DNA of 24,255 bases from a virus, in UHGV virus genome UHGV-0262927; one strand, 5' to 3'. Below, piece after piece: positions 6,913 to 7,817 of this stretch (positions are counted from its first letter, which is position 1; every line of letters starts with the position of its first letter). The notes below the pieces were generated by a model. That model did not search any database. It saw nothing but the letters and a program-made list of their open reading frames with translations, and was not told where the DNA came from. A program made the position numbers and the translations under genes.

Positions 6913-7392
6913 ATGAGAAAAGTAAAAACAGACAACAGTGATTTAATCGAATACGTAAATACAGTCAAAGAACTAAAAAATCACATTCCAATAGAAGAAT
7001 ACAGAAATGAATATCGTAAACTGCGTTCCGATGATATTCCATTGGTTAAAGCTCAGAAATTTAAGTCTGCCCATACCGAACTTCGCAGGCTGGAAAAAAA
7101 GAGAGAATCTCTTATTGAATACTTTATTGATGAGTTAAATCCCATCAGCAGTTCAAAAGCTAACACATCAGCGAAATCAACTGGCAATCTCGATTTATTT
7201 AACGAACGCGTGTTATACCGTAAGGCTATTTCAGAAAAGAGTGATGAAGAAATAGTAGCCTTAGTCATAAAACAACGCACAGAAGCCGCTGTTGAGTTCC
7301 AGCGTTCAATTGAACAGAGTCTTGACCAACTATCTCGTATTTCGTCAGAGTTCGAACCATCAAGCCAGAAGCGCAGGAAAATGTCTATCTAA
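6913..7392 (+). CDS. hypothetical protein (159 aa), possibly the 5' part of a frameshifted gene
   Basis: ORF in track; the next frame is already open from 7326 and runs to 7817. Confidence 0.4.
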   Translation: MRKVKTDNSDLIEYVNTVKELKNHIPIEEYRNEYRKLRSDDIPLVKAQKFKSAHTELRRLEKKRESLIEYFIDELNPISSSKANTSAKSTGNLDLFNERVLYRKAISEKSDEEIVALVIKQRTEAAVEFQRSIEQSLDQLSRISSEFEPSSQKRRKMSI

Positions 7393-7817
7393 ATCCAAAC
7401 CTTCATAATATAATATTAACAATCTTATCAATTGTTAATACTGATGATGGAAATGATAAATGGAACAGGTTAAAAGAAGCAAAAGATATCTTAATCGAAT
7501 GGAGAAAATCTACTCGGGTATTATTTCTTCTTCAGGACATAACGAACGAAGAAGACTACGATGATGATGTTATTTCATTTTTCATCCATTGCTATCATAT
7601 TAGAGATTGGATCATTCACCTTAACACTTTGAATATCAGAGCAAATCATGTGGATATATTCATCAATGAACACCAAGCATTGAAGATTTGCGCTGATTTA
7701 GCTAATGGTTCTAAACATTGTAAATTAACTCGCTCAATGCGAACTGGTCGCCAACCTCACATCGCAGCTAAACAAAAACAAACATCTACTTGGTATTCAG
7801 GAACTAGGTGGTGGTGA
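7326..7817 (+). pseudogene. Open frame of 163 codons without a canonical start until TTG 7629; contains an Rx4H (RDWIIH) HEPN-like motif
   Basis: Frame open from the TGA at 7323-7325; no ATG/GTG/TTG for 101 codons, improbable by chance in AT-rich DNA; overlaps the end of 6913-7392 in the -1 frame. Confidence 0.3.

Follow-up and report, generated by a model that had tools for sequence, protein, structure and literature searches.

Among the closest described counterparts of the locus considered here is ICEKp258.2 of Klebsiella pneumoniae, in which DUF4756, an H-NS homologue, AlpA/RDF and DUF6387 stand in that order along the backbone, and the DUF4756 open reading frame (ORF) is listed in Table 1 at 480 bp and 159 amino acids (aa) (PMC10763509). 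UHGV virus genome UHGV-0262927, a single strand of 24,255 nucleotides that we refer to as the window, has the same backbone order, and resembles ICEKp258.2 also in its low GC content and in the defence genes carried as cargo in its variable region, which are the Septu genes PtuAB here and TIR-domain and type III restriction-modification (RM) genes there (PMC10763509). Within this ROD21-like (EARL) setting lies a frame switch at 6913–7817, which a sequence-only reading had taken for a frameshift in a former gene of approximately 300 aa, carrying a HEPN-like motif in its downstream part. Our analyses show that there are two genes at this position, that a 4-bp duplication and a 1-bp insertion have turned the second into a pseudogene, and that the downstream ORF without a start codon is a by-product. 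The whole is in all probability best explained as an intact DUF4756 gene followed by a doubly frameshifted cargo gene of a predicted defence family; this cargo belongs to a different, unnamed family from that of ICEKp258.2 and is, unlike it, a pseudogene. Annotation gains an intact gene and a cargo pseudogene with exact lesion coordinates, in place of a 'split 300-aa HEPN toxin'.

The second gene is also represented among published predictions. Table S10 of the DefensePredictor study includes WP_063113495.1 (cluster WP_071829189.1) as an uncharacterized 'Predicted novel defense gene' with a mean log-odds of 10.5 (PMC13092281), where the stringent cutoff is 4 (PMC13092281). This protein is the intact product of Escherichia coli strain A31. 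When repaired, the window sequence is a full-length 169-aa member of the same cluster, in the same genomic slot as in the E. coli strains with intact alleles; it differs from the other members in having two frameshifts, such that it cannot make the protein, and the defence role of the family is itself a computational prediction. The elements of the locus are as follows.

6913 to 7392, plus strand: DUF4756 gene, intact, 159 aa; a backbone gene of ROD21-like (EARL) islands, separate from the broken gene
7326 to 7817, plus strand: start-less stop-to-stop stretch of 163 codons, in which only 7550–7804 is ancestral coding sequence
7460 to 7974, plus strand: pseudogene of a solitary 169-aa gene (WP_063113495 family), in three frames with two insertions, as aligned with the intact alleles of A31 and 05-3629 and with 2013C-3181
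7460 to 7564, plus strand: N-terminal fragment from the true start, with 27 ancestral residues and 7 out-of-frame residues before TGA; the start position is kept in at least 90% of homologues
7546 to 7549, plus strand: lesion 1, a 4-bp tandem duplication of ACGA (AACGAACGAAG against AACGAAG in the intact alleles)
7602 to 7619, plus strand: RDWIIH, the supposed Rx4H motif, in predicted helix 2 (29–53); not conserved in the wider family
7704 to 7718, plus strand: NGSKH, the truly conserved family motif, at the end of predicted helix 3; K84 and H85 are invariant and N81 is present in 76 of 82
7805, plus strand: lesion 2, the 1-bp insertion T7805 (GGAACTAGG against GGAACAGG in the intact alleles)
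7807 to 7974, plus strand: C-terminal fragment in the third frame, GGGEVMTCKYTIL...TKTI and a stop; the listed ORF 7822–7974 is its ATG-initiated part

The first gene runs from ATG 6913 to TAA 7390–7392, the end that had been read previously, and encodes 159 aa. Residues 1–158 of its product match positions 1–158 of the 158 in Pfam PF15948 (E 1.9e-63; 213.6 bits against a gathering cutoff of 25), PHROG 38784 is matched at E 2.5e-103, and the gene is annotated as a 480-nt coding sequence (CDS) in 7/7 E. coli records inspected. To judge from these matches, 6913–7392 is a complete gene on its own and no piece of a former longer one. In other islands similarity to the window stops exactly at the DUF4756 stop codon and a full-length H-NS gene comes next, an arrangement present in many E. 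coli islands; the position after DUF4756 is therefore a variable cargo slot.

The frame that overlaps the end of this gene, with codons at positions divisible by three, opens after TGA 7323–7325 and comprises 163 sense codons from 7326 to TGA 7815–7817. Its first canonical start is TTG 7629, preceded by ATC, ATA and ATT codons only, and to this extent the sequence-only reading was accurate. Three-way DNA alignment of the window with the intact alleles reveals exactly two insertions. The first can be placed anywhere within 7541–7550 and puts all that follows into the +1 frame; the second, T7805, adds a further shift of one base and generates the TGA at 7815–7817. The shifts sum to +5 bases without mutual compensation, and removal of the five bases (7546–7549 and 7805) recovers a 169-aa ORF, the translation of which is collinear end to end with the family, including the N-terminus MEQxxRxxRYLxR, HCYH[IV]RDW and NGSKHC. 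As the sequence stands, translation from ATG 7460, ahead of which there is a weak GGA Shine-Dalgarno sequence at 7449–7451, ends after 34 codons at the stop 7562–7564, the central 85 codons of the gene lie in the start-less frame, and the last 55 lie in the third frame (7807–7974). PGAP annotates a 510-nt, 169-aa CDS in both A31 and 05-3629, with its ATG at the equivalent of window position 7460, and because this N-terminus is at least 90% conserved in homologues, 7460 is the start. The lesions are at 7546–7549 and 7805, and not in the overlap or around 7370–7390, where a frameshift had been proposed. The window copy of the gene is non-functional. PGAP leaves the pseudogene region unannotated in strains identical to the window here, and a scan for promoters and terminators performed no better than on shuffled sequence.

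In this lineage, then, the 169-aa cargo gene in the slot after DUF4756 was killed by the 4-bp duplication and the 1-bp insertion, and its middle part now lies in a frame incidentally stop-free back to 7326, which accounts for the 163 open codons without a start that run across the DUF4756 stop. Such damage is like that of ordinary indel pseudogenes in combining a short tandem duplication with a single-base insertion, in its clonal premature stop and in its nonsense-mutated neighbour, and we found no point of difference.

Two features could be cited for a former single gene of approximately 300 aa across 6913–7817, broken by a frameshift in the 7326–7392 overlap: the frames overlap by 67 nt with no start in the downstream frame before 7629, and the stop-free stretch upstream is longer than typical. 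Such a gene is nevertheless highly improbable. The 159 aa of DUF4756 already cover the whole of the Pfam model, the proteins of the downstream family keep a Met start of their own, and no fusion was found among the homologues of either gene; among related genomes, we recovered the two-gene alleles of A31 and 05-3629 where an intact single ORF had been anticipated, and because these alleles exist the split-gene interpretation is already refuted. The overlap region is identical in relatives with an intact downstream gene. In strain A31 the linking frame is interrupted by a stop, within the stretch equivalent to 7326–7540, and hence that stretch is not ancestral coding sequence. DUF4756 and the 169-aa gene also occur independently, most homologues of the latter having no DUF4756 neighbour. 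The upstream translation of the start-less frame (NDKWNRLKEAKDILIEWRKS...) was considered as the ancestral N-terminus and rejected, given that homologues keep the other frame and that A31 has its stop; a functional pair or toxin-antitoxin system formed by DUF4756 and the 169-aa gene was likewise rejected on account of their independent occurrence.

Among 5426 complete E. coli genomes, sequence downstream of 7440 is present in 21. The 169-aa ORF is intact in 11 of these, while the broken 551-bp sequence of the window is found, identical, in seven independent complete genomes. Three others, of the 2013C-3181 type, have an independent 1-bp deletion in the 169-aa gene, so that the damaged copies (10/21) derive from two separate events. 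In the 2013C-3181 allele (L002:4061-4569) and the two genomes that share it, the deletion costs the conserved N-terminal 13 residues, including the invariant R9, and PGAP still annotates a protein of 157 aa, with an internal Met as its start. Either a fitness cost or relaxed selection would fit the repeated loss in E. coli. Frameshifts are frequent among assembly artefacts, and the gene might on that ground be thought to be really intact, with both indels due to sequencing or assembly error; this is exceedingly unlikely, given that the identical 551 bp occurs in seven independent complete assemblies, including FDAARGOS_1253, _1254 and _1372, that a tandem duplication of 4 bp accounts for one lesion, and that the other is outside any homopolymer. 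Since seven independent assemblies carry the identical allele and neither insertion is within a homopolymer, the lesions are real mutations. Phase variation was also rejected as an explanation, since the duplicated 4-mer is present just twice and the inserted base lies outside any repeat.

The lesions have one property that might favour continued expression by programmed or rare-codon-induced +1 frameshifting, in that each of them is a +1 shift; moreover, lesion 1 creates a CGA-AGA-AGA run of Arg codons, with tandem AGA just ahead of the premature stop. CGA and AGA are rare Arg codons in E. coli. Two separate recoding events would be required, however, where intact alleles need none, and we found no slippery site or stimulatory structure. 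Direct reading of 7326–7392 reveals no X-XXY-YYZ heptamer, as had been observed before, and a two-frame layout is not conserved, every homologue found, save a few truncated fragments, being a single ORF; PGAP, too, annotates nothing at this position in the identical strains. Recoding is scarcely credible under these circumstances, and the earlier preference for a mutational over a programmed frameshift is borne out by the two insertions relative to the intact alleles.

The family to which the broken gene belongs is large and widely distributed. We identified 165 homologues of about 155–175 aa that share the N-terminus MEQxxRxxRYLxR (at least 90% conserved in alignments of 24 and 81), and a HMMER profile search at E<=1e-3 returned 2056 cluster representatives, 831 of which also pass E<=1e-10; stand-alone proteins of 150–175 aa make up nearly all of the set, and at 50% identity the family comprises approximately 2000 clusters. 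P0001, the nearest cluster representative in the database, shares 95% identity with the A31 protein, and members from Pseudomonas, Methylomonas and E. coli are 50–70% identical to one another. A scan of GTDB species genomes placed the family in Gamma-, Beta- and Alphaproteobacteria, Desulfobacterota, Ignavibacteriota and Bryobacterales, and Acidobacteria are among the hosts. It is rare on plasmids, and no homologue was found in 50,697 phage genomes; a phage-encoded anti-defence role was rejected on the latter ground, which also counts towards a role in defence. P0241, a protein of 6128 aa, gives 25 separate profile matches, all to the beta-meander and C-terminal part of the profile (positions 101–156), and may be a repeat protein of that sub-domain or a low-complexity artefact.

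Residue conservation across the family bears on the HEPN-like motif that had been proposed. RDWIIH is indeed encoded at 7602–7619, and among close relatives R47 is conserved, with H at position 52 in 68/81 and Q, E, N, R or Y in the remainder. We scanned 81 close and 82 distant members (the latter at 25–51% identity) in Pfam and PADLOC; across the 82 distant representatives, K occupies position 47 in 64 and R does so in 10, while 46 have N and 12 have H at position 52. Because these positions vary so, RDWIIH is a lineage-specific coincidence and no catalytic signature. The 81 close members matched no Pfam HEPN family at E<=5; NCBIfam gave no match at E<=1 and PADLOC none at E<=0.1, and a profile search against the PDB returned nothing relevant. 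Described HEPN RNases, such as the MNT-HEPN toxins SO_3166/5yep and 8xdj and those of the abortive-infection type, differ from the present family, which has no conserved Rx4-6H motif, no profile match and no MNT or other partner, and in which the AlphaFold2 model places a beta-meander of approximately 36 residues before the last helix. Comparison of folds does not discriminate for or against HEPN. The N-x-x-x-H spacing of the family resembles the RNxxxH variant of the HEPN motif, although Ala or Cys takes the place of Arg. That the intact family consists of bona fide HEPN RNase toxins, from a toxin-antitoxin or abortive-infection module, is unlikely, and a HEPN-like origin of the family is equally so.

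R9, D34, F39, K84, H85 and W146 are invariant, while C43, H45, D48, W49, C76, D78 and N81 are at least 90% conserved, and the alignments indicate that C-A-D-[IL]-[CA]-N-G-x-K-H, at the end of predicted helix 3, is the real signature of the family. AlphaFold2 (predicted local distance difference test score 84.7, predicted template modelling score 0.81) places helices at 2–19, 29–53, 60–80 and 135–151, with a beta-meander at 99–134 inserted ahead of the last, and the intact protein would accordingly form a bundle of four helices into which the meander is inserted. Foldseek searches with this model retrieved nothing from the PDB and one unnamed viral protein from BFVD (E 5e-3); the profile search of PDB sequences gave a chance match alone (E 0.8). 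A weak match to the PADLOC MTase_II model (E 0.0025) recurs in just 3/82 members, and a Pfam scan of the longer, multi-domain distant homologues found unrelated extra domains only (SH3 with CHAP, and a zinc ribbon), with no bridge to a known family. Because of the invariant polar residues and the very strong conservation across phyla, the intact 169-aa protein would most plausibly be an enzyme. Its most likely activity, at a nearly even chance, would be that of an abortive-infection-type nuclease or RNase acting through N-x-x-K-H rather than the canonical HEPN Rx4-6H.

The genomic company of the family points towards defence. We clustered the neighbours of the gene over 43 loci and annotated them with Pfam and PADLOC. 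A cyclic oligonucleotide-based anti-phage signalling system (CBASS), comprising cyclase and effector, lies within 5 kb in 11 of the 43 loci. These 11 represent at least seven host lineages, and the distance is often less than 300 bp, with varying orientation. Elsewhere the neighbours include CapP, type II RM, a type IIG RM that immediately precedes the genes of a distant subfamily and, in E. coli, Septu; by this measure the 169-aa family is enriched beside known defence systems. No partner gene is conserved among the 43 loci, none being shared beyond three related loci, and the family does not therefore have the two-gene organisation of a type II toxin-antitoxin system. In Sideroxydans, Neorhizobium, Brucella and Simplicispira (L024:790-3099, L035:8001-10555, L038:8001-10429 and L044:5261-7664) the gene is approximately 60–300 bp from the same minimal CBASS, consisting of cyclase PDLC00772 and a 2TM effector, PDLC00686, to which it is co-directional, convergent or divergent; this proximity suggests either a shared mobile cassette or a functional link. 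The most distant subfamily (31–32% identity; L047:4415-8465, L048:29-2207 and L049:4577-8558) is found directly downstream of a type IIG restriction-methyltransferase gene encoding 1100–1200 aa, with a gap of less than 10 nt, and the two look like an operon.

In the mechanism we propose, the intact protein would be a solitary effector of anti-phage defence, residing in defence islands. A fuller version, in which the family would be a new anti-phage system of one protein, having a non-canonical K-H active site and a fold without counterpart among solved structures, perhaps functionally tied to minimal CBASS, we put forward tentatively, as somewhat less probable than its converse; if it is true, the frameshift loss in 10/21 E. 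coli copies, which took two independent events, stems from the cost of the protein to fitness. The notion of a decaying defence or toxin module, as first put forward, survives in part: the copy is decaying, and the gene is one of defence islands that is computationally predicted to be defensive, but the gene boundaries and the lesion positions were wrong.

Several observations weigh against our account of an intact DUF4756 gene with a broken defence-family cargo gene. The 72 codons at 7326–7540, upstream of the lesions, are free of stops, which is somewhat improbable by chance (P = 0.003 by mononucleotide shuffle, 0.008 from the local stop-codon frequency); such a stretch is uncommon, yet unremarkable for something picked for its length. 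Some loci of the family, e.g. that in Methylomonas, have no defence neighbours, the 169-aa protein does not appear in the tables of tested systems in the DefensePredictor paper (PMC13092281), and it has no meaningful match in Pfam, NCBIfam, PHROGs or PADLOC.

A non-defensive family, whose members would be mobile-element maintenance or regulatory proteins hitch-hiking in variable regions, would accommodate the loci without defence neighbours and the standing of the defence role as prediction only, as well as the position of the 169-aa gene in E. coli and Yersinia, where it adjoins RepL-like and H-NS-like island genes. We consider this rather doubtful, since CBASS and RM neighbours recur in unrelated genomes that have no EARL backbone, the DefensePredictor score is high, and strong conservation with invariant polar residues is typical of an enzyme. 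More widely, the locus draws attention to a compact and strongly conserved family, represented in several phyla and lacking a Pfam model, that is found in defence islands, often by CBASS, and has a high machine-learning score, its defence role being a prediction. The intact E. coli alleles (A31, WP_063113495.1, and 05-3629, WP_054627078.1) provide ready test material and the window allele a natural null control; the feature itself is an ordinary pseudogene, and the family behind it is a reasonable experimental target.

The window is E. coli DNA. Around the locus, its positions 1–11072 are 99.97% identical to the chromosome of E. coli strain A13, and a 2-kb region about 6913–7817 is 100% identical in six complete genomes. 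From position 1 to approximately 11,000 GC content is low (30–40%), and the island backbone comprises RepL-like, a 263-aa gene, DUF4756, H-NS-like, AlpA/RDF and DUF6387, in the order of ICEKp258.2. DUF4756, H-NS-like, AlpA-like and DUF6387 match Table 1 for that element (PMC10763509) and identify an EARL (ROD21-like) island by content, the integrase end of which falls beyond the window. The neighbouring features are as follows.

2070 to 2735, minus strand: PtuB of an intact Septu system, from the PADLOC scan
2739 to 4004, minus strand: PtuA of the same intact Septu system, from the PADLOC scan
6036 to 6827, plus strand: backbone gene of the island, 263 aa in relatives; a single nonsense codon, TAA 6297–6299 (GAA in A31), inactivates it; no family match
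7980 to 8387, minus strand: 134-aa gene, intact, convergent to the pseudogene, the stop codons being 5 nt apart
8425 to 8667, minus strand: H-NS-like gene, annotated in the matching A13 region
9462 to 9680, minus strand: AlpA-like gene, annotated in the matching A13 region
9896 to 10789, minus strand: DUF6387 gene, annotated in the matching A13 region

The in-frame stop noted earlier in the gene upstream of DUF4756 is real, and PGAP flags the gene with an 'internal stop' in A13. The 134-aa product has no match in Pfam, PADLOC, NCBIfam or PHROGs; together with the 169-aa gene it forms a two-gene cargo cassette in Enterobacterales only (E. coli, Brenneria and, as a fragment, Yersinia), and it may be a lineage-specific partner or immunity-like gene. 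A direct repeat of approximately 265 bp (86% identity; 1462–1726 and 4658–4920) brackets the Septu cassette, which suggests that recombination between the two copies brought the cassette in or swapped it for another.

From 11,073 onwards the window consists of the tail end of a lambdoid prophage (tail fibre, Lom, J and tape measure). ARAGORN finds no tRNA in the window; A13 has tRNA-Ser and tRNA-Asn genes just beyond DUF6387, and identity with A13 ends at 11072, inside the tRNA-Ser gene of that strain. The prophage appears to have integrated at the tRNA end beside the island, disrupting or replacing it.
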